Part shown: piece by piece, positions 22,760 to 44,244 of the stretch
Position numbering within the stretch: position 1 is the stretch's first letter
How the letters are laid out: every line of letters starts with the position of its first letter
DNA from: a virus
Lineage: Duplodnaviria > Heunggongvirae > Uroviricota > Caudoviricetes
Length of the DNA stretch: 64,000 bases
Reading direction: 5' to 3' (one strand)
Virus record (IMG/VR): IMGVR_UViG_2903405734_000002
Coordinates: 1 to 64,000 of that record
Notes under the pieces: model-generated
Told to the model about the DNA's origin: nothing
The model's input: only the letters and a program-made list of their open reading frames with translations
The model's database searches: none
Position numbers and translations under genes: made by a program

Positions 22760-22816
22760 AATTTCTTCTGTCGATGCATTTCGGCAAGAAGAGAGCCGAA
22801 AGGCTCGCCTGTTTGA

Positions 22817-22892
22817 TGCGAGGTAGAGCAGTTGGTAGCTTACGGGCCTCATAAGTCCGTGGTCGCTGGTTCGAGTCCAGCCCTCGCTTCCA
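22817..22892 (+). tRNA. tRNA-Met(CAT), with 1:72 mismatch
   Basis: Anticodon loop ctCATaa, T-arm GCTGG-TTCGAGT-CCAGC, CCA encoded. Positions 1 and 72 are T:T. Confidence 0.8.
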
Positions 22893-22898
22893 AGATTT

Positions 22899-22975
22899 GG
22901 GATTGTAGCTCAGTTGGTTAGAGTGCTGGCCTGTCACGTCAGAGGTCGCGGGTTCGAGCCCCGTCAGTCCCGCCA
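22899..22975 (+). tRNA. tRNA-Asp(GTC)
   Basis: Acceptor GGGATTG/CAGTCCC, anticodon loop ctGTCac, CCA encoded. Confidence 0.85.
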
Positions 22976-22980
22976 TACAT

Positions 22981-23064
22981 GCGAATGTGGTGAAATTGGT
23001 AGACGCAGGACATTTAAAATGTTCCGCCTTTGGCGTGTCGGTTCGATCCCGACCATTCGCACCA
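22981..23064 (+). tRNA. tRNA-Leu(TAA)
   Basis: Acceptor GCGAATG/CATTCGC, anticodon loop ttTAAaa, long variable arm, CCA encoded. Confidence 0.85.
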
Positions 23065-24952: not shown

Positions 24953-25029
24953 GGCCCCGTATCACAATCGGTTAGTGGAGCGTCCTCATAAGGCGTAACG
25001 TCTCGGTTCGAGTCCGAGCGGGGCCACCA
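24953..25029 (+). tRNA. tRNA-Ile2-like (anticodon CAT, lysidine type)
   Basis: Acceptor GGCCCCG/CGGGGCC resembles E. coli ileX/ileY (GGCCCCT). Anticodon loop ctCATaa. CCA encoded. Strong terminator hairpin follows at 25046-25097. Confidence 0.75.
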
Positions 25030-26431: not shown

Positions 26432-27085
26432 ATGCACGAAAGCATATATCCATTAAACTTCCCCATTGAGGGGGAGGGTAAATTGCGTTTTGGAATGAAA
26501 GCCCAGGGCTGTCTGCCATTTGTCCAGCGGTCTGTTGCTGATGGGCAGGGTTGGAAGCAGATAGCAAGGAGCATAGGCTGGGTGGCTTTTTCTGCCATGC
26601 AGGAATACACCTCAATATCATTGTCTGATTTTCTTTCTGAGAAGGGACTGCTAATTGACTCATGCAACAGGAATCCATTTTTTGGGTTCGCGCTGTACGA
26701 CCAAGAGACAAGCTGCATCGACATAAAAAGAGATAGGGAAAATAACCAAGAGCCAGGCTCTATGTTTCAAGCGCTGGTGGTTTGTGCTCAATTTATAGCC
26801 ACAAACAAAGCTGTATTTGATCAAGGCCCAATCCAATCGCCAGAAATATACATGGAGAATGACTCAGAGCCTCGTGACATGGTATTTCATGCCTACCTAA
26901 GAAAAAACGGGGTCGAGATCATCGTATCTGACAGAGCCTATCATGGCGCAATCGAAAGAATAGCCTCTATGCTTCAACATGGATATATTTTGATCTCAAG
27001 CGTGTTTTTTGATTTGGTTGATATAGATAACGCTCAAAAAGCGTTCGTTTCTGATTCTGCCGTCAAAAAAAGCCTGTTTTTTTGA
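26432..27085 (+). CDS. hypothetical protein (217 aa)
   Basis: ORF only. Confidence 0.45.
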   Translation: MHESIYPLNFPIEGEGKLRFGMKAQGCLPFVQRSVADGQGWKQIARSIGWVAFSAMQEYTSISLSDFLSEKGLLIDSCNRNPFFGFALYDQETSCIDIKRDRENNQEPGSMFQALVVCAQFIATNKAVFDQGPIQSPEIYMENDSEPRDMVFHAYLRKNGVEIIVSDRAYHGAIERIASMLQHGYILISSVFFDLVDIDNAQKAFVSDSAVKKSLFF

Positions 27086-27146
27086 TAAAAATTATCTAAG
27101 AGGGGTTGCGCTATGTTTTATTATAGCTATAATAACTACATCGATT

Positions 27147-27514
27147 GGGGCTGACCTGGTTTCGACAGGGTATAGGTGCCTGAATTGCGAGTCGTGTGTT
27201 ATGTATCACACGTAAATCCATGCATAAAACAAATAATCGCTAACGACGAAAGCTTCGCTGTCGCCGCCTAATAAGCGGTAGACAGCCTCTCCACTCAGGG
27301 TTTCTCAGGGCCTAGAGAACATGGAGAGTCAAGTCTCCCTGAGATCGCGTGGCGGCTTCTGTCAGTAGCCAAGACGCTAAACGTAACCTGACTCGCCGGA
27401 GGAATGATTTGCCCATCAATCATCTTCCTGGCTAAAAAAATGATGAGGCTATGCTCGTAGATGTTCAACGCACTGGTGTTCTGGACGCGGGTTCGATTCC
27501 CGCCAGCTCCACCA
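27147..27514 (+). ncRNA. ssrA: tmRNA (SsrA), tag peptide ANDESFAVAA
   Basis: 5' GGGGCTGAcctggtttcgac. Resume codon gct then AACGACGAAAGCTTCGCTGTCGCCGCCTAA. 3' tRNA-like end GGACGCGGGTTCGATTCCCGCCAGCTCCACCA. 368 nt. Confidence 0.95.
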
Positions 27515-27600
27515 CAGATTCAGATGAGTCCTGGGTTTTGTTTTAATCCAGGATTTGTTTTTTAAGGCTCCATGTTTTTTATTGTTGGGGCGAATGATTT

Positions 27601-27695
27601 ACGAGGCTCCTCGCGGCTAGTTGCAGAGCGGCAAGAGGGTGGATGTGGTCTAACTGCAAGGGTCACTGCATGGTTCGAATCCTGCGGCCTCACCA
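27601..27695 (+). other. Degenerate tRNA/ssrA-3'-like remnant
   Basis: catGGTTCGAATCCtGCggcCTCACCA resembles the ssrA 3' end GGTTCGATTCCCGCCAGCTCCACCA, but the T-stem is disrupted by an extra T. Lies 90-180 bp downstream of ssrA. Confidence 0.4.
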
Positions 27696-27769
27696 AATTG
27701 GCTCAAAAGAGCTTTTGTTTTGAGTGTTAGCTGGTCTAACATGTTGTTAATATCGTCTGAGGATTTTTT

Positions 27770-28234
27770 ATGCAAGAAGGTAGCAAAAAGCTTTCTTGCG
27801 GGATTCTTATCGTAGACGCAAACAAAAACATCTTGATGCTGCATGCAACAGGGCAGAGCTTTTGGGATCTACCAAAGGGAACCCAGGATGAAGGCGAATC
27901 CACGATTGAGACTGCCGTAAGAGAAGTAGAGGAAGAAACCGGAATCAAGGTAGATCCATCAAAATGCATCGAGCTTGGCTGGTATGAATACAACAAGTTC
28001 AAGGATCTGTTCTTGTTCCTGTTGCCAGTTGACGAAGTTGATCTTAGTCAGCTCAAGTGCGATAGCTACTTCATTAATGGTAATGGCGAAGAGCTGCCAG
28101 AAGCAGATGCCTTCAAGATGATTCCCATTGAGAAAGCATCAAGTTTCATGTGCCAAAGCATGTCCAGGCTGTACAACAGCTGCCTCGAAAGAGACATCAA
28201 CATCATGCTTGATCGCTTCAAGAAAGCCGCATAA
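27770..28234 (+). CDS. NUDIX hydrolase
   Basis: Nudix box GTQDEGESTIETAVREVEEETGI. Confidence 0.8.
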   Translation: MQEGSKKLSCGILIVDANKNILMLHATGQSFWDLPKGTQDEGESTIETAVREVEEETGIKVDPSKCIELGWYEYNKFKDLFLFLLPVDEVDLSQLKCDSYFINGNGEELPEADAFKMIPIEKASSFMCQSMSRLYNSCLERDINIMLDRFKKAA

Positions 28235-28245
28235 AAAAAGCCTCG

Positions 28246-28821
28246 CTACTGCGAGGCTTTTTCTTTTCTTTCCAGTCGATCCCTTTCTTCCTGCTCCCTG
28301 AGATGCTTTATGATTCTCCTCTCAAGGTAGGTAGCAAGTCGTCTGTTTGTTGTTGTAAGTATCTCGATGTTGTTTTGGTTCTTCATGAGAGCGCTTACAA
28401 TGTAGCTTCTGCTAAAGGTTCCGTCCTTGTAGTCAACAAAAATCTCAACCACGTTTTTAGATTTCAGTTGTTCGGTTTTCTCAATGAGCGAGATTGGTGA
28501 TTGACTTATTGTAATTTGTCTTGGGTTGATATTTATATATACATCATTTACCATCATTCCGAATATTTTATATCCAGAATAACACATGACAACAAGAGCC
28601 ATGATTTGGATGTGCATTTGATTTAGATTAAATATAGCGCCCTTTAATCTGACGGACTCAAAAATATATCCAGATACCAATATGGTCATAAGCCAAAAAA
28701 GAGCAATAATTCGCACCTCCATTGCTCTACCTAGCTTAAACCTGATTAGAAGCCTTATTTTGCCCATACTCACATGAACAAAGCTTGGTTTTTGAATCTT
28801 CCCTTTTATATTTATTGCCAT
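28246..28821 (-). CDS. membrane protein (191 aa)
   Basis: Two to three TM helices. Charged C-terminus. Confidence 0.5.
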   Translation of the reverse strand: MAINIKGKIQKPSFVHVSMGKIRLLIRFKLGRAMEVRIIALFWLMTILVSGYIFESVRLKGAIFNLNQMHIQIMALVVMCYSGYKIFGMMVNDVYININPRQITISQSPISLIEKTEQLKSKNVVEIFVDYKDGTFSRSYIVSALMKNQNNIEILTTTNRRLATYLERRIIKHLREQEERDRLERKEKASQ

Positions 28822-28895
28822 TTGAATCTACTATTATTGTTATAATGGTATTATATATTTTACATTAACCATTAAATAAAAACAATATAGATGAA

Positions 28896-29255
28896 TTACA
28901 TGCAAAAAACATGAACACCAGTGGTGGTGTATGACTCTCTATTTGCGAGAGCGGCTCTCCATTGCTGCATAATGGCATCATAAGAGGGGTTTTCAGAAAG
29001 ATGGATATCAATAAGTGTATCTGCGACTAGAAAAGCTTCATTGCTATTACTCATCACCTGGCGTAGTAGGTGATTGCGCATATCGCTCTTGGCTTTAAAT
29101 AAGCAGCGAAACTCTATTTCTGATTCATTAACCGGAACTATCTGAATTGAACGAATAAAAGAAATGGCTCCACTCTCGATGAGCAAAGCAAAGGCAGAGA
29201 TGTCTTTTCTTTGACCGTTTTCAGATCTGTCTTGTGGTTCCAGGTGACGAGCCAT
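28896..29255 (-). CDS. hypothetical protein (119 aa)
   Basis: ORF only. Confidence 0.4.
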   Translation of the reverse strand: MARHLEPQDRSENGQRKDISAFALLIESGAISFIRSIQIVPVNESEIEFRCLFKAKSDMRNHLLRQVMSNSNEAFLVADTLIDIHLSENPSYDAIMQQWRAALANRESYTTTGVHVFCM

Positions 29256-29286
29256 TTAGCTGCTAAATCTCCATTTAAGTCTGTTT

Positions 29287-29634
29287 TTAGAAGGAACAGC
29301 TGTACAGCCGAACAAGGCGGGGAAGCTCAATAACCCCTATAGTATAACCCATAAAACCTATTATAGCGATATGGTCATGATTGTCATTTGAATAACATGT
29401 GGTTTTATAAATATTTTTGCCCATTGAGTCCTGAAAATCATAAAATACCTTTATTATCAACAACATAAGAATGAGTGGATACCTGCCGCTGGCTTTACCG
29501 ACTAACATCTTGTAACAATTAATCTTGGTGATATAGCTATCATCAAATGCATGGTTGCGTTTTTTTTGAGCTATTGATGCAGTAAAAGTGACGAAGATCA
29601 AGTATTGGTCACTTATTGCTTCACATGGATACAA
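29287..29634 (-). CDS. hypothetical protein (115 aa), doubtful
   Basis: ORF only. Low-complexity, AT-rich. Confidence 0.25.
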   Translation of the reverse strand: MYPCEAISDQYLIFVTFTASIAQKKRNHAFDDSYITKINCYKMLVGKASGRYPLILMLLIIKVFYDFQDSMGKNIYKTTCYSNDNHDHIAIIGFMGYTIGVIELPRLVRLYSCSF

Positions 29635-29809
29635 AAAGGTGCAGATGCCTCAAGTCGCATCTCTGTTATTGTTTGGCTTAAATAGCTGATTCCTGTCTCA
29701 CGATTTAAATAATGGATCCAATATTTACTCCATAATATTTAATGTTTATTAATTGACTGAAAGTAGTCTATGTATTATATTTCATTAATAGAATTTTAAG
29801 GGGTGTGAA

Positions 29810-30268
29810 ATGAAGGCAAAAGCAGCTATTGTAAAAAACCGAAAGGCTGAGTTCGACTATTTTTTGAAAGAGCGTATTGAAGCTGGCCTGTCTCTAGAAG
29901 GGTGGGAGGTTAAGTCTCTCAGGGAGGGGAAAGTAAACCTCCAGGAAAGCTATGTGATGAATATCGGCGGCAGGATGATGTTGGTAGGCTGCCATATTAC
30001 TCCAATGATCCAGGCCAGCACTCATGCTCATTGTGATCCGGTCAGAAACAAGCCGCTCCTTCTGAACAAGAAAGAGATTGACCACTTGATTGGATCTGTT
30101 GAGCGCAAAGGCTTTACTTGCATTCCGGTTTCGCTGTATTTTAGCGGAGGAAAAGTTAAGCTTGAGATTGCACTTGCGGAAGGCAAAAAGCAGCACGATA
30201 AGCGAGCAACAGAGAAGGCCAAGGATATGAAGCGCGAAGCAGATAAGGCCATCAAGGGGCTTCGCTAG
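29810..30268 (+). CDS. smpB: SsrA-binding protein SmpB
   Basis: KAEFDYFLKERIEAGLSLEGWEVKSLREGKVNLQESYV...GKKQHDKR closely matches SmpB. Confidence 0.9.
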   Translation: MKAKAAIVKNRKAEFDYFLKERIEAGLSLEGWEVKSLREGKVNLQESYVMNIGGRMMLVGCHITPMIQASTHAHCDPVRNKPLLLNKKEIDHLIGSVERKGFTCIPVSLYFSGGKVKLEIALAEGKKQHDKRATEKAKDMKREADKAIKGLR

Positions 30269-30290
30269 TCTTTATTCAAAGAGGATAGCA

Positions 30291-30611
30291 ATGGCAAATA
30301 GAAAGATATACGGCATCCACCCATCAAGACCTGAATATGTTGCAAAAATCAAAGGTGATGCCGGAAGATATCCGATATGGGGTTTGGATTGGTATAATAA
30401 CCGAGCCATTGTCTCTCGTGCGGGTGCGCTCGAACTAATTAGCTTCGATAAAATTGCATTCGAAATGGAAAATAAGGATGAAGAAAAAGAAATCCAGCTT
30501 TTTCAGTGCGTGAAATGCAAGCATCTTTATCACGAAAAGATCGCTTCTTGTGATTGTACTGCTGGCGAACCTTTTGAGTACACTGACTGGATTGCAAGAC
30601 CTGTTATCTAA
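30291..30611 (+). CDS. hypothetical protein (106 aa), four Cys (CVKC...CDC)
   Basis: ORF. Possible zinc ribbon. Terminator 30617-30648. Confidence 0.45.
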   Translation: MANRKIYGIHPSRPEYVAKIKGDAGRYPIWGLDWYNNRAIVSRAGALELISFDKIAFEMENKDEEKEIQLFQCVKCKHLYHEKIASCDCTAGEPFEYTDWIARPVI

Positions 30612-30646
30612 TTCTTAAAAAAGAAAACCTGCCGAGGCAGGTTTTT

Positions 30647-31201
30647 TTATGCTTCCGCTGTGATCAAGTCATTCAGCATTTCATCATCGAGATATCTGAT
30701 CATGATGTAATCATCGATGGGGCAGAGTCCGAGCTTGTTCATCTCAGCAACTTTATCCTCATCTTCAATTGCCATCCTGTCGCACAAGCAATCCCAGGCT
30801 GGGCACATCGCGAAAGAATATTTCATTTCGCTCTCTTTCAGCAGTCTGCGGATAACATGCTTCTCAATTCCAAGTCCCATGTAAAATGGCGTCATGGACA
30901 CATCATCAATGATGATACATTTTCTTGGGCCAGTGACACCCTGAGAGATAATGTCAGAGATCGTAGCAATGGTATAGGAATCATCCAGAAGATATTTTTT
31001 AAGCCTTCCGAGGTAGGTCTCATCTCGGTCAAGCCATCGTCTGGCAGTTTTTAGATCGTTAGCTAAACCCCAATCATATTCGGTGTAGAGCAAGTGACCT
31101 ATGACTTTGTTTTCTATGAGTATTTCATGAGTAACATGAGAAAGAAACTGATTATCTCCGATGTCAATAATGGCTTCACTCAATGAAACTGGGTGGGTCA
31201 T
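30647..31201 (-). CDS. hypothetical protein (184 aa)
   Basis: ORF only. Confidence 0.5.
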   Translation of the reverse strand: MTHPVSLSEAIIDIGDNQFLSHVTHEILIENKVIGHLLYTEYDWGLANDLKTARRWLDRDETYLGRLKKYLLDDSYTIATISDIISQGVTGPRKCIIIDDVSMTPFYMGLGIEKHVIRRLLKESEMKYSFAMCPAWDCLCDRMAIEDEDKVAEMNKLGLCPIDDYIMIRYLDDEMLNDLITAEA

Positions 31202-31411
31202 ACACTCTCCTCATTCGATCAATAATTGAAATATAGGTGTTTTTAAATTAAATGGCAAGAATTTTGGTTTGACATCAAAAAAATAACTGGTATGAAGATG
31301 ATCGAACTACGCAAGCCATCAGCCTGCATAAGGGGTGGGGCGGCTCAGAATCTCTTGCTTTTTAATATATTTTATGTATAATTAATTACATAAATGACAA
31401 GGAGATAGAGC

Positions 31412-32977
31412 ATGTTTCGGCATCAAGTAAAGCTTCCTCATGGCTATTTTGCTAAATCTAAAAATGAATATTCTAATTGGAGATTTAGTTGGTGGAGAGA
31501 GGCTATTCAAAACTCTGTTGATGCTGGGGCAACCAAGATTGAGCTTTTTATAAAGACCATGGATGATGGTAAATTAATGCTCATTTGCAGAGATAATGGC
31601 TCAGGAATGAGCAAATCCACTTTGCAAGATGTCTTTCTGGCTCTTGGTGAAACCGACAAAGGCACCGATAAAACAGGTGGTTTTGGATATGCTAAGGTCA
31701 TTATTCTTTTTGCTCACGACAGCTATACCATCAAAACCCAGGATAACATTGTCACTGGGATGGGCGGATCATATGACATTGATGAGCTGACAGAGTTTTT
31801 TAATGGAACTGAAATCTCAGTGGTCATGGATGTAGAGGGTTCTTTTAATGAGAGCTCTTTCAGAAGACAGCTCATGGAATTTGTTGATTCATCATCGTTC
31901 GACAAAAATGTTCACCTCTACCTGGACAATAAGGAGCTTAAAAAACCAGAAAAATCATATGCTTATCATGTTGACAGCAAGATCGGCAAGATCAGCTTTA
32001 ATGATGGAGAGCCAGGTGACTCATCAAGATTAATGATTAGGGTAAATGGGCTGGTGATGTTCACACATTCCGTTTATCTCAATGAGCAGTCATCATCTTT
32101 TTATGGCATTCTTGACCTCGACAAGCCATCAGTTGAAATCCTGACGAGTAATCGCGATGGTCTGAAATATGAATACTCGCAAACACTGAATCAGATCGTT
32201 TCTGTTTTGAGCCAGGAAAGAAGCAGCCTCAAATGCAAAGACTTGATTGATGTTACCTTCAACAGGATGTATGACTATGAGTACGAAAGAAGCCTGTCCT
32301 CATCTCGCCAACTGAGTGGCGGCTCTGCATATGCAGGATCACTTAGTGAAGTTGGCATCAAGGGGATGCCATTACATGGTCAAAATCCAGATTTTTCAGG
32401 AAATCCATTTCAAAAATTTAAAGCAAGGGCTGACGCACTCGTAGATCAGGTGGCGCTCCGATTTGGAAAAATCGATCAGTCTCAGTACCCTAACAATTTC
32501 AAGGTAAAAACTCATGAGATGAATGCTGAAAATCCAAAGAAAAAATACTTTGAGATTATCAGACTTCTAGAGCTGAAAAGAGTCCAAAAGCTGGCATGGA
32601 CATGGTTTTTTATCATAGAGGAAATTCTAAAAACAGAGTGGGCTGAGACACATAGCATCAAGTGGGTTAAGAACAGGGCCACTCGATTCGACATGCCAAT
32701 CAATATAGGCTTCATCTTTAGTGATGAGGCAAATGGCTTAAAGGTAAGAGATAAGGATGGCTATCATATATTGATTAACGTTGCATCTCTTGATGATGAC
32801 TATGACTTCGAGGACATCCTTGATATTGCTACTCATGAAGTAACACATCTGGCTGTATCCAATCACAGCGAAGGCTTTTGTTCAGAAGAAATGGCGCTAA
32901 GAAAAAGCCTTAGAAAAAGGATTAAGGCTCGACAGCTTGAGCGTCTTTGTCTCGAAAAGGTTCGAGAGATCTTCTAA
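31412..32977 (+). CDS. GHKL-type ATPase (Bergerat fold) with C-terminal HExxH zincin-like motif
   Basis: N-box EAIQNSVDAGA, G1 RDNGSGM, G2 TDKTGGFGYAKV. C-terminal IATHEVTHLAV. RBS AGGAGA. A hairpin lies immediately after the stop. Confidence 0.65.
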   Translation: MFRHQVKLPHGYFAKSKNEYSNWRFSWWREAIQNSVDAGATKIELFIKTMDDGKLMLICRDNGSGMSKSTLQDVFLALGETDKGTDKTGGFGYAKVIILFAHDSYTIKTQDNIVTGMGGSYDIDELTEFFNGTEISVVMDVEGSFNESSFRRQLMEFVDSSSFDKNVHLYLDNKELKKPEKSYAYHVDSKIGKISFNDGEPGDSSRLMIRVNGLVMFTHSVYLNEQSSSFYGILDLDKPSVEILTSNRDGLKYEYSQTLNQIVSVLSQERSSLKCKDLIDVTFNRMYDYEYERSLSSSRQLSGGSAYAGSLSEVGIKGMPLHGQNPDFSGNPFQKFKARADALVDQVALRFGKIDQSQYPNNFKVKTHEMNAENPKKKYFEIIRLLELKRVQKLAWTWFFIIEEILKTEWAETHSIKWVKNRATRFDMPINIGFIFSDEANGLKVRDKDGYHILINVASLDDDYDFEDILDIATHEVTHLAVSNHSEGFCSEEMALRKSLRKRIKARQLERLCLEKVREIF

Positions 32978-33021
32978 GAGAAAGCAATGACGCACATACT
33001 GTGCGTCATTTTCATATTAAG

Positions 33022-33402
33022 ATGATGAGAATCAATATGGCTTTGTACACAATAAGAAAATCAAAAAAAGAGTGTTTTCATATAGTTTCATTCAAAAAGA
33101 AGTTCTTAGAACTGATTTCTGAGGCTGACGGGTGGTGCATTCGGGTTTTGATTGCGAAAATCATAAAAGACCTGTCGGCCCTAAAAGGGAGGGTTGTCAT
33201 TGATGCTGACTCACAAGATCTCATCAATGAGGTAATCTCAAAAAATGGGGATTTTGTTTTTGGAGAACCAGGGGATTACTCCATGTCCCTATTTTTTATA
33301 GATGGATTAATGATATCTAACTCAGGAATGGACTATGAGAGGATGTTCGACCTAATCACAAAATTCTATAAAATGCTCAAAGAGGACAAAGGCCAGGATT
33401 GA
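33022..33402 (+). CDS. hypothetical protein (about 126 aa)
   Basis: ORF. Start placed after the hairpin that follows the GHKL gene. Confidence 0.35.
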   Translation: MMRINMALYTIRKSKKECFHIVSFKKKFLELISEADGWCIRVLIAKIIKDLSALKGRVVIDADSQDLINEVISKNGDFVFGEPGDYSMSLFFIDGLMISNSGMDYERMFDLITKFYKMLKEDKGQD

Positions 33403-33561
33403 TGACTGGCTGTTTTTTGCCCAGAAGAATCCCCTATTCATTATTTTTAAAAAAACCAAACAACCTTATATTTTGGCTTGACGAATATAATATTTTAAGT
33501 ATAATTAACTCCATCAAAGCAAAACAACAACTAGCAAAAAATAATAGATAGGGTGAAAATT

Positions 33562-34002
33562 ATGAGTAATTCAATGAAAGTATCCGGCCTGGTAAAAGCG
33601 CTCATCAAATCTTCTGTTGAAACCAACGTGTTTCTCGTTAATGGCGTAAGGCTGTCTGGCTGCATTGAGAAAGCCGATGCTTCGACTCTCATTCTTGTTC
33701 GTGATGGCAAAAAACAAGCCATCTATCGACATGCTATTGCCACCATTGTTCCTGTAGGGCAATTCAGCAAAGAAGCATTTGACTCTGCCGCTGATTGCGC
33801 AGAGCAAAGCACTGGCGAGAGCCTGCTCAGTGGCCTTGTAAAAACTGGTGACAACATCAATGCATTCATGCTGAATGGAATTCGCTTGTCTGGTGTTCTT
33901 CTGTGTGAAGATGATGAAATGCTCCTGATGTCAGTGCCAGAAAAAGATCAGTTCCAATCCGTAATGAAGCGAGCTATCGCCACTCTTTCTGCTTTGGATT
34001 AA
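33562..34002 (+). CDS. tandem double-Hfq (Sm-like) domain protein
   Basis: Domain 1 VFLVNGVRLSGCIEKADASTLILVRDGKKQAIYRHAIATIVP, compare Hfq [23 protein letters not shown]...YKHAISTVVP. Domain 2 AFMLNGIRLSGVLLCEDDEMLLMS...MKRAIATL. Confidence 0.8.
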   Translation: MSNSMKVSGLVKALIKSSVETNVFLVNGVRLSGCIEKADASTLILVRDGKKQAIYRHAIATIVPVGQFSKEAFDSAADCAEQSTGESLLSGLVKTGDNINAFMLNGIRLSGVLLCEDDEMLLMSVPEKDQFQSVMKRAIATLSALD

Positions 34003-34092
34003 TCGAATTTTCCATTATGGAGACTCTTTGGTTTGAGTCTCTATGGTCAGGAGTCCTGGCATTGCCAGAATTAAGGTTTCGGAGTACAAAAT

Positions 34093-34527
34093 ATGACCAA
34101 TAAAAAGATTTTTATGATTGAGGCGCTGATTAAGTCAGAGCAGGCTGTGGATGTGTTTCTCGTAAATGGAATCTGCCTAAAAGGGCGTCTGGTTGCACAG
34201 ACCAGTGGATACTTGGTGTTGTCCGATTTCATGGCGAAGAAAGCGCCTCAAATCATCTATCGACACGCTATCTCTACCATTGTTCCCATTGGTGCGTTCG
34301 ATGTTGAGTCTGCACTGGTTGATCCTATGCTGCCAGAGTGCAAGCAAGGAGAGGCCCTTCTTGACGCGATTATGAGCCAAAATCTGAGCACAAGTGTGTT
34401 TATGATGAATGGCATTCGCCTGGTGGGCATCCTTGTCAGTCAGACAGAAGAATCCTTCCTTATGAAGGTGTTCAACGGCTGCCAGGAGATCCGAAAAGCA
34501 GCAATTGCAACCATTGTGCCGTCATAA
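34093..34527 (+). CDS. tandem double-Hfq (Sm-like) domain protein, paralogue
   Basis: Domain 1 VFLVNGICLKGRLVAQTSGYLVLSD...IIYRHAISTIVP. Domain 2 VFMMNGIRLVGILVSQTEESFLMKV...RKAAIATIVP. RBS GGAG. Confidence 0.8.
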   Translation: MTNKKIFMIEALIKSEQAVDVFLVNGICLKGRLVAQTSGYLVLSDFMAKKAPQIIYRHAISTIVPIGAFDVESALVDPMLPECKQGEALLDAIMSQNLSTSVFMMNGIRLVGILVSQTEESFLMKVFNGCQEIRKAAIATIVPS

Positions 34528-34727
34528 ATCGCATGCTTGTCAAAAGGCCACCATAAGGTGGCCTTTTTTGGTAATCAGAAAAACAGGCAGGGCAAGGGAA
34601 AAACCTGGTTGCTTGCTGCGAAGCAGGGTTTTGAGAATCCGCTTACGCGAACATAGCCAGTTCTCCTTTCTCTTTATCCGTAAATGGTTATAATCCCAGC
34701 CAGATAGGTGTACTCCCTGGGGTTTCG

Positions 34728-35063
34728 ATGAAAAATCTTCCTTACTTCTCCTTTGTAGACAAAAGACTTCACGAGGAGTGGTCTGTCGATGGCCTGCATC
34801 AATTCTACGTTCCCAAAGGCATTGTGACGCACATTAGCTATTACCCTATGGATGGCAAGGATGAAGAGATCGGAGTCCTTTATACATCGCCCAGCGGCGT
34901 ATTGTTTAGGGAGTGGCGCTCAAGGAATGAAGTCGAGATAAACGAAATCAATGAGGTAGAGTGGAATTCCCTCTACGAGCTGTTTACAGCCAAACAAATG
35001 ACTCACAGAAGAGGGATCTCTCTTCGGTATAGTCCCGAGCAGAACATCTTGGATGTTCACTAA
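34728..35063 (+). CDS. hypothetical protein (111 aa)
   Basis: ORF. Terminator 35062-35095. Confidence 0.45.
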   Translation: MKNLPYFSFVDKRLHEEWSVDGLHQFYVPKGIVTHISYYPMDGKDEEIGVLYTSPSGVLFREWRSRNEVEINEINEVEWNSLYELFTAKQMTHRRGISLRYSPEQNILDVH

Positions 35064-35093
35064 AAAGGCGGCCATTGGCCGCCTTTCTCTTTT

Positions 35094-36623
35094 CTACTCA
35101 TCATCATCTATGGCTGTTCTTAGGTTGCTTGCGAAAAGGTCTGACTCGATTTGATCAACGTTTTCAAAGTCGAACTTGATGATCCCTTCATCTTGGTATG
35201 CATCTTGATTATGAAGGTCTTTGTCATAATCATCATCTGGGTAATCATCACTATCAAGATGAGCTGACGAGAAGATGTCTCCTGGCAGCTCGCTATCATC
35301 AGGAAGATCTCCCTCCAACCCTTGCAGCAGCTCCTTCATCTCACTTTCATGATCAACAGTAGCTTGATGGGGCAGGGGGCTATCATCCATTATCTCATCC
35401 CCAAGGCCAATGATGTCCGCAATCCTGGCTTTTTCTTCGTCATCCATTGCTTGGGCTGTTGGATGATCTGCCGGAAGAATGTCAATGATTTCAGGAAGTA
35501 GTTCGGCCACTATCGCGACAGAAGCAGCTGCGGTGCCAGTACCAATAGCAGCTTGGGCGACTTCATTTTTTTCTTCCTTGATGATTGCCTTCGGAGGAGT
35601 TTTGTATGATGACTCCTCATCCTCTCTTTCCTCTTTGCTTGTTCTGATAACTCTATGTTCTTTATTGGTTTTTTTATGCTCTTTCTGCTCTGATTGCTCT
35701 TTTTTGATGAGCTCCATCATTGCCTTGTTCATGTCGTCATTATCAAAGACGCCTGGTGCCTTTTGTTGTTTTTTTTCTGAGATTTTAAAGTTACTATATT
35801 TTTCATCAAAATATTCTTTGTCTGTCAGCAATCTAGCAAAAACATCCGACTCATCTTCTGCCTCATCAGATACAGACTCTTCAAGCTCAGAGCGATTGAT
35901 CAGGATGGCTAGGCTATCCTCAATCTGCTGATCTTCTTTGGCGAATTTTTCATTAATTGATATGGAAAGGTCTTTATTTATAAATTCCACCGCATCTTTT
36001 TTGGAGAAGTATTGGGAAGAATTCTCGGTATCGCTTTGAGCTACCAATCGGCTTGTTTGTATTAAATCATCAAACTCTTCTTTGAGGTATTTAATTTCTT
36101 TTGCCGTGGGCGTTAGGGCATAGACGAGCTCAACATAAAGATTGATAAATTTCAAAGCATCTGTTTCTGCGCCTTTCAAGTAATTGACCAGGGCTGGCTT
36201 TAAAAAGTCCTCATCATAGTCTCGGTTAAATCCCTTTACTGATAACAGCCCTGATGCAGCAAGAAGAATTGCTCTTTTTGTTGCCTTGTGGTTTCCCAGG
36301 ACATGGAGCCTGTCCATTAACCACTTGGCCCTGTATCCCATGATTAAAAGAACAGAAACTATGCCAATAAAAATAATGCTGTTATACGAGGCGCTTAGGC
36401 AAAGGGTGCATACATAAAGTGAAAGAGCAATGATGCCCAATGGAAGTCTGTTTACCGAAGACCACTCGGGGAACGTCTCGGACAAACGCCTTCTCTTTAA
36501 CATGCAATCGATCAGAAACTTATCCAGAAGAGGAAGATCTGTAATCGGGAAAAGGCGCTTGTTGATTACCTTAATGGCCTCCCTCGATTTCTGTAGATGC
36601 TCATATTCTTTGTGATTCTTCAT
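35094..36623 (-). CDS. membrane-anchored acidic low-complexity protein (509 aa)
   Basis: N-terminal TM helices. Long Glu/Asp/Lys-rich C-terminal region. Confidence 0.55.
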   Translation of the reverse strand: MKNHKEYEHLQKSREAIKVINKRLFPITDLPLLDKFLIDCMLKRRRLSETFPEWSSVNRLPLGIIALSLYVCTLCLSASYNSIIFIGIVSVLLIMGYRAKWLMDRLHVLGNHKATKRAILLAASGLLSVKGFNRDYDEDFLKPALVNYLKGAETDALKFINLYVELVYALTPTAKEIKYLKEEFDDLIQTSRLVAQSDTENSSQYFSKKDAVEFINKDLSISINEKFAKEDQQIEDSLAILINRSELEESVSDEAEDESDVFARLLTDKEYFDEKYSNFKISEKKQQKAPGVFDNDDMNKAMMELIKKEQSEQKEHKKTNKEHRVIRTSKEEREDEESSYKTPPKAIIKEEKNEVAQAAIGTGTAAASVAIVAELLPEIIDILPADHPTAQAMDDEEKARIADIIGLGDEIMDDSPLPHQATVDHESEMKELLQGLEGDLPDDSELPGDIFSSAHLDSDDYPDDDYDKDLHNQDAYQDEGIIKFDFENVDQIESDLFASNLRTAIDDDE

Positions 36624-36717
36624 ATATTCTCCGTTTTTATTTTATTTATCATTTAAATGAAGCAAACCGATGTGGTATGATAACAAATATAAGAATAATA
36701 ATGAAGGTAATGTTGTT

Positions 36718-37521
36718 ATGAGCTACAAAAAAGAGATGGAGTCATTCATATCTAAGAATCGCGAATCGATCTGCGAAAGCCTTGGTCTTAAGAGCTATGA
36801 GATCATTGATAGCGATCTAAGAATTATGGCTGCATACCTGACACCAAAGGCAGGTGAGAAAAATTTTGATGCTGGTAACGGCATTGATACCTCTTTCATT
36901 GAAGATCTTAAGCGCCTGCCTAGAAACAAGGTGGGAGAGGAGATCCTGCTTAAAGCGATTGAAGCAAAAGAGAAGGGGGAATCCCTCGGCAGAAGGATGC
37001 CAAATGCCCTGAGCAAGCGTCAGCTCTTCTCCCCAAAGGTAGAGGCGGCCATGCAAGAAAGACGCAGAGAGATGAGTTCTGAGTCGTTTGGCAAGCTCTC
37101 TGGCAATGTGGTTATGCTCAAAACTCACCTTAAGACCCTTGCTCAATTGCTTCACAGTGATAGCAGCTTTGCAGAGCCATCTTTCAGGTTTCAGATTAGA
37201 GCAATTTTGAAGATGATTAGCAGTGACCTTAATAAGTGCAACTATCAAGCCAGGGCTGGAGCAGTCTGGGCTATTAAGTCAGGTATTTCTGCTGATAGTG
37301 CTGCGATTGCTGTTAATCAGGTTTATTTGAGACATCTGAATCAACTGAGCAAAACTTTTGCGCCAGTGGATGAATTGATTAACGCCAACGGAATTGACTG
37401 CAAAATGTCAAAACAGATTGACTCAATCAAAGAACGGTGGTATCAAGAGTTCCAAGAAGTATTCCAAATGAAAAAGGACATTGTGCATGGAAATCGATTC
37501 GTTGCTGAACCAAGCCTCTAA
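36718..37521 (+). CDS. hypothetical protein (267 aa)
   Basis: Start at MSYKK with GAAGG RBS. ORF. Confidence 0.5.
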   Translation: MSYKKEMESFISKNRESICESLGLKSYEIIDSDLRIMAAYLTPKAGEKNFDAGNGIDTSFIEDLKRLPRNKVGEEILLKAIEAKEKGESLGRRMPNALSKRQLFSPKVEAAMQERRREMSSESFGKLSGNVVMLKTHLKTLAQLLHSDSSFAEPSFRFQIRAILKMISSDLNKCNYQARAGAVWAIKSGISADSAAIAVNQVYLRHLNQLSKTFAPVDELINANGIDCKMSKQIDSIKERWYQEFQEVFQMKKDIVHGNRFVAEPSL

Positions 37522-37675
37522 AGAGGATATTATTGAAGTGCTCCGAAAAAATGCGACACCAGAACAAAATAGATTTCTTGATGTTGCGAGAGAAGTCGAA
37601 AACGAAATGAACGGCATTCCAGAGTGCTGTGACGCTCTTGAACAAGCGGTCAAAAGCCGAACATCAAAATCATAA
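37487..37675 (+). CDS. small hypothetical protein (about 62 aa)
   Basis: ORF with AAGGA RBS. Overlaps the preceding gene's end. Confidence 0.3.
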   Translation: MEIDSLLNQASKEDIIEVLRKNATPEQNRFLDVAREVENEMNGIPECCDALEQAVKSRTSKS

Positions 37676-37711
37676 TCAAAAAAAGAAAAGGCACCTTGAA
37701 GGTGCCTTATT

Positions 37712-37975
37712 TTATTTCCTGTTTTTCATTTCCTCGCACACAGCAATACTGATTTTTGCCGGATACTTTCTCAAAATATCTACAAGATCTGCATCATGAG
37801 GATCATTATTGGTCTCAAAACCAAAGCAATCTGCCAGGGTGAGAACATCAAGAACATTATTTAAGAAAAACCTACGCTCATCTGCATCGCTGATTTTGAC
37901 ACCGTGCTTTTCGGCATGAGCAACAAGAACAGCGGAGACTTCTTTCTTGATATTTTCAATCTCTTGAAGCTTCAT
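37712..37975 (-). CDS. hypothetical protein (87 aa)
   Basis: ORF. Terminator hairpin 38011-38040 on the other side. Confidence 0.45.
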   Translation of the reverse strand: MKLQEIENIKKEVSAVLVAHAEKHGVKISDADERRFFLNNVLDVLTLADCFGFETNNDPHDADLVDILRKYPAKISIAVCEEMKNRK

Positions 37976-38053
37976 TTTTTCACCTAAATTAATTTTTTAG
38001 TTTTCTAACTAAATAAAGGTGGCATCGCCACCTTTATTTTTAAGATAAATATC

Positions 38054-38305
38054 TTAAACAACAACTTCCTCAAGCTGGCTTTTAGCAGCATCAAGCTTGC
38101 GAGTCTCATTCATGCCTGGGCCGAAGACCTTGCGATGATGGTTGCACATGGCGCAAGAGCAGCATGCAGGGGTATTTACAGAACGACCGAGGCGAACAGG
38201 GTCGATCTCGCCGTTCTGATCGTGGATGCCGCAGTAATTCTGCTTGATGCGCCTGGACTTAATGCGAAGAAAATGATGGCGCTTACTGGCTCTACCTTTT
38301 TTCAT
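38054..38305 (-). CDS. small basic Cys-rich protein (83 aa), possible zinc ribbon
   Basis: YCG...CCSCAMCNHH. Lys/Arg-rich N-terminus. Confidence 0.45.
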   Translation of the reverse strand: MKKGRASKRHHFLRIKSRRIKQNYCGIHDQNGEIDPVRLGRSVNTPACCSCAMCNHHRKVFGPGMNETRKLDAAKSQLEEVVV

Positions 38306-38405
38306 AAGACTACTTCCTTATGGCTATTGTTATAATTGACACCATTCTAATATCAACAATAATTATTTACAAGTAAAATAATCAAGAGATTTGAGCCAGG
38401 TCTCA

Positions 38406-39047
38406 TCAGCTAAAAATTCGATCAAAAATTGAGCTGTTATTTATAGCATCTATTAATTTGACCATTACTCCACCAGCCACAAAAGACATGATAATCAAGA
38501 AAAGAACATCGCTTATGCTAAGTTCTACTTCTTTATTTTTTGTTTTAGTCTGATTGTCTTTTATTTCTTGTAATGGTTCGAGTGGTTCGTCAAAACCGAC
38601 AAGTAGAGTATTTATTTCTTCTTCGCTCAGTTCTGGATTTGAGTATGCAATTCGCATATATTCATCTAAGATTGCATCTTTTCTACTACCAAAAACCCTG
38701 TCTCCAAGCTCTCCTTTTAGCTCAAAATAATCAACTATTGATTCGACTATCTCCTGATAACCCTCATCAGTAAAAAAATGAATTTCAGAACAATGAAGTG
38801 CTCTGTAAATTTTATTGTATTCCATCTGCTTGACAGACATCAGACAAAGATCGTTATATTCATTGTCTTTGCTTCTAAAAACATCCAATAGGTTAAAAAG
38901 CGATGTGATTTCACAAATAGAAAAAAACCCTTTTGAATGCCTTGCATTAAACAGCATGGTTGCAATATTAATTAGCTGATTTTCTGCCATGACCGCAATA
39001 TTGCTTTTGACCATGGGGAATAACTCTTGCTCTTTGTTGCTGAACAT
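38406..39047 (-). CDS. hypothetical protein with C-terminal TM helix (213 aa)
   Basis: ORF. Confidence 0.5.
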   Translation of the reverse strand: MFSNKEQELFPMVKSNIAVMAENQLINIATMLFNARHSKGFFSICEITSLFNLLDVFRSKDNEYNDLCLMSVKQMEYNKIYRALHCSEIHFFTDEGYQEIVESIVDYFELKGELGDRVFGSRKDAILDEYMRIAYSNPELSEEEINTLLVGFDEPLEPLQEIKDNQTKTKNKEVELSISDVLFLIIMSFVAGGVMVKLIDAINNSSIFDRIFS

Positions 39048-39216
39048 ATGCGCCCTTATTTTTTGTTGATAATATCAGTTATAATAACATCCATCAAGAC
39101 AAACAGCATTGCCTTTTTAAATAACAATAATATACTAATATTTTTCATATTTAATTGAAAAAAAACAGCATAAGAATTAAAATACAATAAAAAAACAACC
39201 AAAAAAGGATAGAAGT

Positions 39217-39867
39217 ATGAATTTAAACTTTTCCAGCTCCCAATGGGACAATCTAGCGAGCTTGTTGAGCGAGGGGGCATCAAGCGAACTGTTGATTAAT
39301 GCTCTTTCTTTTCAGGCTGTCATTAATGATCTACAGCTAAAGTCTCCAACCCAGGAAGATTTGTCATCAAAAGAATTTACCGACTCAGAACTGGTCGCGA
39401 GAAAAGAGTTTGCGCTTGAAGAACGCGAGAATCTTGTTGATGAGATTTTATCCAATATTAGCGATATTGATTTTATTGATCTTGCCGGAAACATATGGAT
39501 GGACTCTGTAGGTAGGTACAAGATTAGCCTGGCTGAACTTCACCACAGCATCATCATGGATGACATCAAGAACATTGACTTTCTTATCACTGACAACAAT
39601 CCGGCAGAAATCACACACTTCCACAGAAAAAATGGAATGATCTCTCTTGATGCGCTAATCAAGGGCAGAGATGGGGTCGTGCTGTCAGATGGGAAATCCA
39701 TTGTTGATTACGATGTAAAATCAAAAATTGTCGGCGTGGAATATTCATCCGTAAATGATATTGCATCAGAACTTGAGTCTTATACAGAAAGGCTATCTGA
39801 ATCAATCGATAGGGCTATTGAGGATGTTTACAGGAGACCAAGCATCAGCTCTGAACTATCACTTTAA
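39217..39867 (+). CDS. hypothetical acidic protein (216 aa)
   Basis: ORF. Confidence 0.5.
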   Translation: MNLNFSSSQWDNLASLLSEGASSELLINALSFQAVINDLQLKSPTQEDLSSKEFTDSELVARKEFALEERENLVDEILSNISDIDFIDLAGNIWMDSVGRYKISLAELHHSIIMDDIKNIDFLITDNNPAEITHFHRKNGMISLDALIKGRDGVVLSDGKSIVDYDVKSKIVGVEYSSVNDIASELESYTERLSESIDRAIEDVYRRPSISSELSL

Positions 39868-39896
39868 ACAGAAAGGGGCCTGCCAAGCAGGCCCTA
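39866..39896. terminator. Rho-independent terminator (serves the minus-strand operon ending at 39909)
   Basis: ggggcctgc-caa-gcaggccc with a T-run on the minus strand. Confidence 0.6.
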
Positions 39897-39908
39897 ATTA
39901 CTGGTTCA

Positions 39909-40544
39909 TCAGAAGGTGGATTTACACACCATAAATCCCATGTCAGAGATTTTACAAGGAACCCCATTCACAGATACTGGGACATCGTTACCATCAATAC
40001 TCAAGCCAATAGCAGTAACCTCACCAGTTTTCAGATTTGCTGACATTGTTAGGATGCCAACAATACTGCTTTTTTCATCTTCATCGAGATCATCATTGCA
40101 ATCCAGCTCGTCTGATTCCAGATAGAAGCGTTTGCTGAAATGTATCAGCTCGCCTTCTTTTACAGACTCCTTTCCATCTGACTCGGTAACTGAATCATCA
40201 TTCGGGATATCGATATTCTGGAAAATCTGCTCGAAATAATTGGATGCTCGCTTCTCTATTATTGAGATAAACTCTAAGCCAGAAATAAGGTCAGCACTGA
40301 TTTGTCCTTTTTTGCCAGACTCTCGATGTGCATCCCGAATGATTTCGGCCAGGGTCTCAACTATCTCAACCTTTATATCCAGATCAATATCACTCAGAGC
40401 GCTTCCAACCCCAGAACGATCACTGAGATTGGCTAACACACCACGAGCAGCACGGTGAGCCCAATCTTTTGGTGGTACTCCAGCTTCGCCATTGGTATCG
40501 TAAGGGTATTTATCGCCATTAATCAAATTGCTGTTAATTTCCAT
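39909..40544 (-). CDS. hypothetical protein (211 aa), last gene of the helicase-associated operon
   Basis: ORF, same strand as and downstream of the 40646 gene. Confidence 0.55.
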   Translation of the reverse strand: MEINSNLINGDKYPYDTNGEAGVPPKDWAHRAARGVLANLSDRSGVGSALSDIDLDIKVEIVETLAEIIRDAHRESGKKGQISADLISGLEFISIIEKRASNYFEQIFQNIDIPNDDSVTESDGKESVKEGELIHFSKRFYLESDELDCNDDLDEDEKSSIVGILTMSANLKTGEVTAIGLSIDGNDVPVSVNGVPCKISDMGFMVCKSTF

Positions 40545-40645
40545 TATATGCGTCCAGAATCATCTGTTTAGTGCAGACATAATATCATGAAAAATAAATA
40601 AAGCAAGAAAAGCCTCGCATGAGCGAGGCTTTTAGGTGTTATTTC

Positions 40646-41050
40646 TTACTGATTGTTATCAGTAGATGCCACTTCTTCTGGCTTCTCTGCCGTCATTTCG
40701 TACTTTTCATTCAGGCAGGTAAACACTTCGTGAGCCAGCACCACTGTCGGAATGGTCAGGCCACCGATGTAGTCGATAGCATCACCTGTGTCCAGGGTGA
40801 AGGTAATTGGCAGCCCCTCGCGGTTGTCATTATTGCTATCATCAAAGGTGATGATCGCAGGAATGACTGGAAGCTGTGCATCAAACTCAAGATCCTTGTC
40901 GGCCATCATCTGGGTTGCATAGCGAAGGCCCAGTCTTGCCCAGTTGGTTGCAACATCGTCTTCGGAGTGTTCATTGAGCTCAATGGACACATTAATCTGA
41001 GAGCGCCCATCATCAGAACGCACTTCATCAAAAACAAGCCTTACGCTCAT
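40646..41050 (-). CDS. hypothetical protein (134 aa)
   Basis: ORF. 9-bp gap to the upstream gene. Confidence 0.55.
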   Translation of the reverse strand: MSVRLVFDEVRSDDGRSQINVSIELNEHSEDDVATNWARLGLRYATQMMADKDLEFDAQLPVIPAIITFDDSNNDNREGLPITFTLDTGDAIDYIGGLTIPTVVLAHEVFTCLNEKYEMTAEKPEEVASTDNNQ

Positions 41051-41059
41051 AAAACCTCC

Positions 41060-41608
41060 TTAAATCCGGTTTGCCAGCAAAACGATATTGTTCACGGTGT
41101 TGCCGCTGATATAAACCAGAGCAGGCAAGATCTGGTGTGAGGCTTCGCTGGTGTTGCCGAGGTGTTCCTTGGCTTCTCGCGGAACCCACTTTGGCATCGC
41201 GCTCTCGCTCAAGACAAGATAAGCCTCAATTTCGGCAGACTCATCGCTAGGCTCAATATCCTCATCATCTTCATCATCCCATTCGTCATCCTCATTGAGG
41301 GGAGGGGTGATGGATGCAGTAACCATGACAGCACCTTGAAAAAGACAGGGATAGATAACCTCAAAGCCCTTCGAGAAGATGTTGTAAACACAAACACCCT
41401 GGCTCTCATTCTTGCCATCCTCTACATCCAAAGAATCGGATGCAGCGGCCATAGAAATGTTCAGGTCAAAGGCGATGTACTCGACACAGCGAGTAACAAA
41501 GAGATTTTTTCGCTCTCCATTCTCGTTATTATCTGCAAGGCAGACAATCGAGCAATCAAGCTCACTCCTCAGTTCTGGCACCAAAAAAAGCTGGCGAATT
41601 CGGCTCAT
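41060..41608 (-). CDS. hypothetical acidic protein (182 aa)
   Basis: ORF with an acidic stretch DDEWDDEDDEDIEPSDE. Confidence 0.55.
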   Translation of the reverse strand: MSRIRQLFLVPELRSELDCSIVCLADNNENGERKNLFVTRCVEYIAFDLNISMAAASDSLDVEDGKNESQGVCVYNIFSKGFEVIYPCLFQGAVMVTASITPPLNEDDEWDDEDDEDIEPSDESAEIEAYLVLSESAMPKWVPREAKEHLGNTSEASHQILPALVYISGNTVNNIVLLANRI

Positions 41609-41669
41609 AAAACAACCTCTCGTTGCGTTGAGAGGGGCCTTCTTACCGATAGGCCCCTATGGGTGATGA

Positions 41670-42773: not shown

Positions 42774-42874
42774 AAATAAGCCTCACTGGTGAATTGGCTG
42801 CCCAACTGATAAATTAATTATACCTAAAATAAATAAAATGGCAATCCTATGACTGCCAATTTATTTAAAAAATA

Positions 42875-44077: not shown

Positions 44078-44244
44078 TTGGAAACCCTTATCAAGAGTAG
44101 TTCAATTGGAATACAGGAATGATATTAAAAAAACAAAGAACCGTCAATATTTATTTTTCATAATAATAAGTATTGGCGGCAGTGTGGAAGCGCCATGAAC
44201 AACCCCACCCAAAAAGGGTGGGGCCTCCCACAAAAGGCATGATT

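Follow-up and report, generated by a model that had tools for sequence, protein, structure and literature searches.

Textbooks present Hfq as the homohexameric RNA chaperone, and the passage from homomeric to heteromeric Sm rings is a classic question of ring evolution. Two adjacent genes bring that question to a mobile element. They lie within positions 1 to 64,000 of the IMG/VR virus record IMGVR_UViG_2903405734_000002 (Caudoviricetes), the 64,000-nucleotide stretch analyzed here and referred to below as the window. Each of them, named hfqA and hfqB, encodes two Hfq-like Sm domains in a single chain. The window has a guanine-plus-cytosine (GC) content of ~43% throughout, as against about 58-60% in Aeromonas chromosomes, and therefore belongs to a foreign, very large element. 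The host Aeromonas veronii possesses a canonical, experimentally studied Hfq of its own (PMC8652118). What, then, are two further Hfq genes for?

The analysis presented here indicates that the products of hfqA and hfqB are probably the element's own RNA regulator and not a housekeeping Hfq. A preliminary description of the locus, made from the DNA alone, had already taken them for specialized proteins, and the GC content of the element, the presence of a host Hfq and the replacement of key Hfq residues (see below) agree with it. It had also advised looking for a canonical hfq elsewhere in the genome; such a gene is present in A. veronii (see above) but not in the window, where no Hfq-like gene was found besides hfqA and hfqB. 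Two-domain Hfq as such is already known; the new part is an independently derived, asymmetrically diverged paralogous pair on giant elements.

Two tandem Hfq proteins and their relatives

Both proteins exceed the gathering score (27) of the Pfam family PF17209 (Hfq), each in two stretches (HfqA, 74.9 bits, E 3.8e-21; HfqB, 61.7 bits, E 5e-17). The E. coli Hfq core, used alone as a phmmer query, likewise finds two domains in each (residues 10-66 and 82-142 of HfqA, 9-66 and 88-144 of HfqB). Profile searches thus do not place the proteins outside the Hfq/Sm family, and both the two-domain architecture and the divergence of the paralogues (40-42% identity) stand as first described. On the equivalog model TIGR02383 ("RNA chaperone Hfq"; cut-off 61.7 bits) HfqA scored 70.2 bits and HfqB 60.9, 0.8 below the cut-off; the relatives (see below), with 53.6-73.9 bits, straddle it. 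The Prokaryotic Genome Annotation Pipeline (PGAP) labels both genes simply "RNA chaperone Hfq", which hides the tandem architecture as well as the divergence.

An AlphaFold 2 model of the HfqA monomer, computed with a 36-sequence alignment, reached a predicted local distance difference test score (pLDDT) of 83.6 and a predicted template-modeling score (pTM) of 0.77; a two-sequence alignment was too weak (pLDDT 63). The model shows a helix and five strands twice in succession, separated by a poorly ordered linker (net charge -4, computed on residues 69-88). Each domain superposes on canonical Hfq with a template-modeling score of 0.8-0.9, and the N-terminal helix and five-stranded bent beta-sheet that characterize the Sm fold are present. 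The pTM value indicates that, as modeled, the two barrels of HfqA form a fixed unit.

The preliminary description had recognized two Sm1/Sm2 units with Hfq motifs in each protein. This is accurate for the N-domains (FLVNG[VI].L.G and YRHAI[AS]TIVP) but not for the C-domains in full: there the Sm1 motif reads FM[LM]NGIRL.G, but Sm2 is degenerate, with MKRAI (HfqA) or RKAAI (HfqB) in place of the YRHAI core. The four window domains were aligned to E. coli Hfq, to which the domains of the element proteins are about 26-31% identical. At Y55-K56-H57 the N-domains have Y-R-H and the C-domains M-K-R (HfqA) and R-K-A (HfqB); the K56(R)/H57 pair is kept in the N-domains only, and loss of Y55 and H57 is confined to the C-domains. 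The distal-face residues that form the A-R-N pocket (Y25, G29, I30, Q52 and T61) are retained throughout the four window domains and also in the two other lineages (see below), with conservative substitutions (Y25 as F or Y, I30 as I or V; F and I/V in the window domains). The arginine rim (R16/R17/R19), on the other hand, is gone from every domain (I-K-S, I-K-E, V-K-G and M-S-N), a lysine occupying rim position 17 in three of the four. None of the proximal residues Q8, Q41 and F42 survives in any of the four domains, and no phenylalanine is found in the 39-42 loop, where the alignment is approximate. Having lost both the uridine pocket (Q8/Q41/F42) and the rim arginines that annealing of small RNAs (sRNAs) to mRNAs requires, HfqA and HfqB are most likely plain binders of A-rich RNA and not sRNA-mRNA matchmakers. 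Conservation is highest in beta4-beta5, the strands that form the ring.

In summary, the likeness to canonical single-domain Hfq (E. coli, Pseudomonas) lies in the Sm fold, the Sm1 motif, the YRHAI Sm2 of the N-domains and the distal face. The differences lie in the fusion of two domains, in the loss of the rim and proximal residues and of the disordered C-terminal tail, in location on a mobile element beside a host hfq, and in charge: canonical Hfq is basic (isoelectric point (pI) 9.99 for the E. coli core) whereas HfqA and HfqB are acidic or neutral (pI 4.8-7.0, with a net charge of 0 to -3 in the C-domains).

The degenerate Sm2 of the C-domains, the many canonical residues lost and the score of HfqB just under the TIGR02383 cut-off could be taken to mean that the genes are decaying, functionless duplicates of a captured hfq gene. 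Measured against a ~90%-identical variant, the ratio of nonsynonymous to synonymous substitution rates (dN/dS) is 0.09 for the N-domain and 0.08 for the C-domain of HfqA (linker, 0.30; whole protein, 0.13) and 0.00 and 0.02 for those of HfqB (whole protein, 0.05). Strong purifying selection acts on each of the four domains, with weaker constraint on the HfqA linker. This analysis excludes decay, leaving it a vanishingly small chance of being the explanation; in addition, the reading frames are intact in all copies, and three deeply diverged lineages have kept both genes together with their promoter.

These lineages came to light in an exhaustive hidden Markov model (HMM) search of 1.84 billion representative proteins, which returned 1301 Hfq-like matches, 24 of them with E <1e-10; a word-based protein search found three clusters only, and the other lineages surfaced through the HMM search. 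The four closest relatives constitute two more A/B pairs, P0005 with P0006, from sequencing-run assemblies, and P0008 with P0004, from compost metagenomes (contigs of 535,803 and 287,446 bp). In all three lineages hfqA and hfqB are adjacent and in the same order. In a tree of the individual domains the N-domains of the family form one clade and the C-domains another, each split into A and B (bootstraps 31-91%); the two domains of one protein are 27-32% identical. The tree and the collinear full-length alignment imply that domain fusion came first, followed by gene duplication into A and B and then by divergence of the lineages. This protein family occurs on a single family of giant mobile elements only.

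The preliminary description had set double-domain subunits, and the trimers they would form, against canonical single-domain Hfq. Such subunits are a known housekeeping form in Sphingomonadales: Hfq of Zymomonas mobilis (ZMO0347) and of six other members of this order has two Sm-like domains, and a three-chain ring has already been raised for it (Yang et al., PMC2877685). NCBIfam holds a dedicated 176-position model for two-domain Hfq (NF010691/PRK14091; cut-off 270 bits). HfqA scored 71.6 bits on it, HfqB 52.2 and the relatives 49-72, compared with 287.4 for a Sphingomonas Hfq run as positive control; with such scores the window proteins and their relatives are not members of the Sphingomonadales family. 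What they share with it is one chain with two Hfq/Sm domains and a linker of roughly 15-20 residues. HfqA is collinear with the Sphingomonadales protein over both domains (PRK14091 positions 29-160), and Sphingomonas Hfq covers 96% of HfqB. However, the Sphingomonas protein is encoded by a single chromosomal gene, in the order ntrC-ntrY-ntrX-hfq-hflX, keeps every canonical residue, Q8, R16, R17, F39, F42 and Y55-K56-H57 included, in both domains and shows 57% identity between them. The element proteins have lost several of these residues (see above), their domains are far less alike (27-32%, see above) and their genes form an A/B pair in a mobile-element block without hflX. The comparison suggests a fusion event separate from the Sphingomonadales one. 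To our knowledge, no two-domain Hfq has been characterized biochemically, and the Protein Data Bank (PDB) contains no two-domain Hfq chain. Lying outside the PRK14091 family, HfqA and HfqB do not correspond to a known duplicated Hfq with a characterized function.

Repeated Hfq domains in one chain are also found in the metagenome proteins P0018, P0026, P0012 and P0016. Unlike the element family, these other tandem Hfq proteins show the canonical YKHAI in each of their domains, and their scores on Hfq models lie at 126-167 bits. In several, each domain is most closely related to its partner in the same chain (bootstraps 58-95%), as expected of recent internal duplications, implying that Hfq fusion arose repeatedly. 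Two metagenome proteins, P0029 (232 amino acids (aa)) and P0042 (203 aa), contain three consecutive Hfq-like domains; two such chains would make a six-domain ring. Further surveys yielded no additional member of the element family. Species-representative genomes of GTDB gave 30 pattern matches, none of which was confirmed; ordinary hfq genes dominated a scan of JGI metagenomes, with none above 48% identity; a scan of IMG/VR for two-domain hfq returned four loci, all single-domain; and the hfq genes that tblastn detected in phages were all single-domain (about 40% identity). Locus L018, a candidate two-domain Hfq on account of a match spanning residues 10-143, was rejected as a 70-aa Hfq aligned to both halves of the query. 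PHROGs holds no match for either Hfq, nor for most of the neighboring genes.

The best whole-chain structural match is the PSV ORF137-like protein 2x4j (PDB), a double-barrel Hfq-like protein of an archaeal virus, both barrels of one chain superposing on the element protein. Identity is 15%, the viral protein is shorter (109 resolved residues), 2x4j is not among the profile matches to PDB sequences, and the likeness may reflect either homology or convergence. Taken with the low pI, which speaks against generic RNA binding, the match raises the possibility that the rings bind single-stranded or curved DNA in replication or packaging, along the lines suggested for the Hfq-like proteins that plasmids and viruses of archaea encode; the archaeal plasmid genes adjoin helicases, and a replication role has been proposed for them (PMC3543421). 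However, the function of 2x4j is itself unknown and the identity to it low, an acidic protein suits DNA no better than RNA, and no replication genes are found in the operon. A DNA-associated role thus appears highly improbable.

A-rich leaders and a possible regulatory role

The (A-R-N)n sequence is the motif recognized by the Hfq distal face; in Pseudomonas, Hfq bound at positions -26 to -8 of amiE blocks translation initiation, which requires Y25 and not K56 (PMC4063720). In the window, the octamer AANAANAA has 35 matches within positions -40 to -1 of 71 crudely called gene starts, as compared to 9.8±3.6 in mononucleotide shuffles of these 40-nt regions (z≈7) and to 3 in antisense orientation. 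They are concentrated between -30 and -15, just ahead of the Shine-Dalgarno (SD) sequence, and 18 of the 71 genes, hfqA among them, have one or more. The related loci L012 and L026 are enriched as well (z 5.7 and 6.7), but unrelated loci with a comparable GC content show no enrichment (z 0.1-0.3). Orthologues tend to share the motif: every lineage has it at the 191-aa and 509-aa genes, and two or three lineages have it at hfqA, YiaAB, the 216-aa gene and the 283-aa gene. It never occurs at SmpB, NUDIX, the GHKL gene and several others. The hfqA leader, whose fold energy is -2.5 kcal/mol (z +0.3), matches AANAANAA in the window and in L026 and has a near match, ACAATAATAG, in L012. Motif-bearing gene starts in the window include 8203(-), 11458(+), 28821(-), 33562(+), 36623(-), 39217(+), 47113(+), 52099(-), 53714(+) and 56524(-), and the (AAN)n runs often read AATAATAA or AACAATAA.

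We tentatively propose, giving the idea slightly less than an even chance of being right, that pseudo-hexameric tandem-Sm rings of the A and B proteins regulate translation of the element's mRNAs through distal-face binding. Three chains would close into a three-fold-symmetric ring of six domains, canonical-looking N-domains and remodeled C-domains taking turns around it; A and B might form separate rings (A3 and B3), mixed rings or stacks. The six retained distal A-R-N pockets would then bind (AAN)n runs 5' of the SD in element mRNAs, that of hfqA itself included, and translation of element genes would be set independently of host Hfq or in competition with it. Repression by Hfq at the amiE ribosome-binding site in Pseudomonas (see above) would serve as the model for such control. 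Both the RNA specificity and the regulatory outcome assigned here to HfqA and HfqB are inferred.

Several points weigh against this proposal. Ring formation and stoichiometry are deduced from the behavior of the family only, and a 1:1 operon does not fit neatly with a three-chain ring. A near-neutral or acidic charge is unusual for an RNA binder. Residues G29, Q52 and T61 are also structural and may be conserved for reasons other than A-R-N binding. The link between the motif and Hfq is one of co-occurrence only: A-rich tracts 5' of the SD can be general translation enhancers or sites for ribosomal protein S1, and host Hfq could be the reader of the A-rich leaders. Finally, the shuffle controls preserve mononucleotide composition only, the gene starts were called crudely, and the bootstraps of the domain tree are moderate.

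Host Hfq could also be the target. HfqA and HfqB might act as decoys that soak up host sRNAs or A-rich mRNAs, or enter defective mixed rings with host subunits, host control being rewired for the benefit of the element. Such interference would make sense of foreign genes in a host with an Hfq of its own, of the conservation of beta4-beta5 and of a strong, near-consensus promoter, and the loss of rim and proximal residues would leave a mixed or competing ring inactive for annealing. However, at about 26-31% identity to E. coli Hfq, co-assembly is doubtful, and the loss of Q8/Q41/F42 speaks against capture of the 3' U-tails of sRNAs. Moreover, the element-wide (AAN)n leaders point to the element's own transcripts as the clients, and the retention of two paralogues would go unexplained. 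We therefore consider interference unlikely and retain regulation of element mRNAs as the preferred reading.

The operon, its neighbors and the carrier element

Together, hfqA and hfqB are a self-contained two-gene operon with its own promoter and terminator (Table 1), carried by an element of Aeromonas and related hosts. The promoter is found 56 nt upstream of hfqA. A block reading TTGAC-N2-ATATAATATTTTA-N-GTATAAT, spacer included, is near-invariant in the three lineages, whose Hfq proteins are 30-51% identical, and occurs only once in the window; its counterparts lie at ~9900-9930 in L012 and ~9920-9950 in L026. The 16-nt spacer holds an embedded second TATAAT. Such invariance may denote binding of a regulator at this site, or else a promoter whose strength is under very strong selection. 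GC-rich hairpins are found 3' of hfqB in L012 and L026 as well. The hairpin between the two genes, considered as a conserved regulatory element, was rejected as lineage-specific, no comparable structure being found in L012 or L026.

Table 1. Coordinates of the hfqA-hfqB operon, its signals and domains, and upstream neighbors in the window (ORF, open reading frame; tmRNA, transfer-messenger RNA).
Feature	Position	Strand	Remarks
tmRNA (ssrA), element-encoded	27147..27514	+	tag ANDESFAVAA; ARAGORN; Rfam RF00023 197 bits
smpB, element-encoded	29810..30268	+	Pfam SmpB E 2.5e-53; NCBIfam 192.7 bits vs 130
GHKL-type ATPase with C-terminal HExxH	31412..32977	+	HATPase_c_3 E 4e-8; neighbor outside operon
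121-aa ORF	33037..33402	+	immediately 5' of hfq promoter; 118-131 aa in all three lineages
sigma-70-type promoter of hfqA-hfqB operon	33478..33505	+	TTGACG-16 nt-TATAAT; 11/12 consensus match
hfqA leader	33506..33561	+	A-rich, unstructured; (AAN)n runs AAAACAACAAC...AAAAAATAATAG directly 5' of SD
hfqA	33562..34002	+	146 aa, two Sm domains (A-type); ATG; SD AGGGTG 8 nt upstream
HfqA N-terminal Sm domain	33586..33759	+	aa 9-66; Sm2 YRHAIATIVP intact
HfqA acidic inter-domain linker	33760..33819	+	aa 67-86; low pLDDT
HfqA C-terminal Sm domain	33820..33999	+	aa 87-146; Sm2 degenerate VMKRAIATL; Y55 to M, H57 to R
intergenic stem-loop hfqA/hfqB	34010..34053	+	-28.3 kcal/mol, z -2.8; without U-tract
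hfqB	34093..34527	+	144 aa, two Sm domains (B-type); ATG; SD GGAG
HfqB N-terminal Sm domain	34111..34290	+	aa 7-66; YRHAISTIVP intact
HfqB C-terminal Sm domain	34351..34524	+	aa 87-144; Sm2 degenerate IRKAAIATIVP; Y55 to R, H57 to A
intrinsic terminator after hfqB	34542..34569	+	11-bp stem AAAAGGCCACC/GGTGGCCTTTT; short U-run partly inside stem; -20.2 kcal/mol, z -3.95

The gene order is ssrA, smpB, the GHKL gene, the 121-aa ORF and hfqA-hfqB. The position between ssrA and smpB-associated DNA given in the preliminary description is thus incorrect, both genes preceding the GHKL gene and the hfq pair. The same text had cited the adjacency of the pair and the GHKL-HExxH gene in suggesting a specialized RNA-binding module. 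The product of that gene (521 aa) has an N-terminal MutL/MORC-like HATPase_c_3 domain and a C-terminal HExxH that is a weak WLM match. Linkage of the two in one operon was rejected: the GHKL gene has a terminator hairpin of its own (32986-33010), hfqAB has a separate promoter, and the GHKL gene, found in two lineages, is cleanly absent from the third (L023-L028). Hence, the association is not obligate and this neighbor is dispensable. The 121-aa ORF has no Pfam, PHROG or NCBIfam match.

The lineages share a syntenic block consisting of YiaAB, HNH, (tmRNA), NUDIX, SmpB ... the 118-131-aa ORF, hfqA, hfqB ... and a helicase. tmRNA and SmpB are kept in all three; the tmRNA of L012 lies at 3696-4062 and has the tag ANDENFALAA. 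The element's SmpB is ~50% identical to gammaproteobacterial SmpB, and a tblastn search for SmpB against phages detected only host genes at prophage borders. Conservation in three lineages of a neighborhood running from a tRNA cluster through tmRNA, NUDIX and SmpB to hfqA-hfqB, together with an RNA ligase and an HD/kinase protein in the same window, could place HfqA and HfqB in a translation or RNA-repair accessory. They would bind tmRNA, tRNAs or damaged RNAs alongside SmpB, the RNA ligase and the kinase-phosphatase-like protein. However, the hfq pair has a separate promoter and terminator, SmpB and neighboring genes do not bear the leader motif, no specific evidence connects tmRNA with Hfq, and the synteny may reflect shared gene order only. 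We regard such an accessory as distinctly unlikely, the element's translational regulator remaining the preferred role for the pair.

Identical proteins are on record in A. veronii, A. media and Aeromonas sp. MrichA-1, on contigs of up to 215,275 and 404,852 bp (the latter from MrichA-1), and in many metagenome runs. The element family is represented on 0.4-0.5 Mb contigs from cultured Aeromonas isolates and from compost metagenomes (the 535,803-bp contig is GCA_003941965.1 RCUT01000003.1). The element may be either a huge phage or a megaplasmid: the window and about 20 kb of flanking DNA (about 85 kb in all) showed no genes for capsid, terminase or conjugation. Megablast with window positions 27000-47000 found no related record in INPHARED or PLSDB, and tblastn against phages found nothing for the conserved 367-aa neighbor. 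Reviews of jumbo phages make no mention of Hfq, tmRNA or SmpB, and a literature search found no paper on the Aeromonas element.

The window encodes NUDIX, HNH, NAD-dependent ligase, RNA ligase, HD/kinase, ParB-like, TnpB and Fic proteins, as well as many ORFs without a family match. There are ten intact tRNA genes and one truncated at the left edge; clusters at 1-251, 22527-23064 and 24953-25029 contain Lys, Glu, Thr (two), Asn, Met (two), Asp and Leu tRNAs and the truncated one. An IS605-type TnpB (OrfB_IS605 plus Cas12f-like TNB; 314-1525, minus strand) and a Fic/DOC protein with DUF4172 (2461-3666, plus strand) are found at the left end. Three consecutive proteins of 531, 624 and 602 aa (17091-22415) have a prepilin-type N-terminal methylation motif, and two of the three also match bactofilin-like beta-helix repeats, an unusual combination. 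Two adjoining ~260-aa leucine-rich-repeat proteins (48756-50341) follow two ~265-aa ORFs without a family match, with which they may form a paralogous array. The orthologue (L019 16666-18117) of the ORF at ~54393-55850 (minus strand) has a precomputed Pfam match to AcrVA2-like (anti-CRISPR); the longer ORF call in the window gave no such match in a Pfam scan. The NAD-dependent DNA ligase lies at 56659-58671, and an HD plus AAA_33 (polynucleotide-kinase-like) protein adjoins the RNA ligase (61302-62510 and 62513-63256). Just past the window, flank L019 encodes a thymidine kinase, two Dam-type methylases and a YkuD protein.

Implications for Sm rings and giant elements

The element family provides a natural, strongly selected case of asymmetrically diverged fused Hfq domains with a second gene duplication on top. 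With one RNA-binding face retained and two discarded, the proteins are a natural separation-of-function variant. With a candidate cis-acting motif on the same element, both the evolution of Sm rings and the way in which very large elements control their own translation, beside a tmRNA-SmpB pair of their own, become directly testable. It seems conceivable, if rather doubtful, that giant elements of this kind (0.4-0.5 Mb contigs) run a private post-transcriptional regulon in which co-expressed rings of the two paralogues, possibly heteromeric or stacked A3·B3, read only (AAN)n leaders and do without sRNA-matchmaking surfaces. If true, these rings would insulate translation of the element from the host Hfq network or oppose it. 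They would also be the first natural Hfq rings in which functional and remodeled subunits alternate, a bacterial counterpart of the homomeric-to-heteromeric transition of Sm rings.

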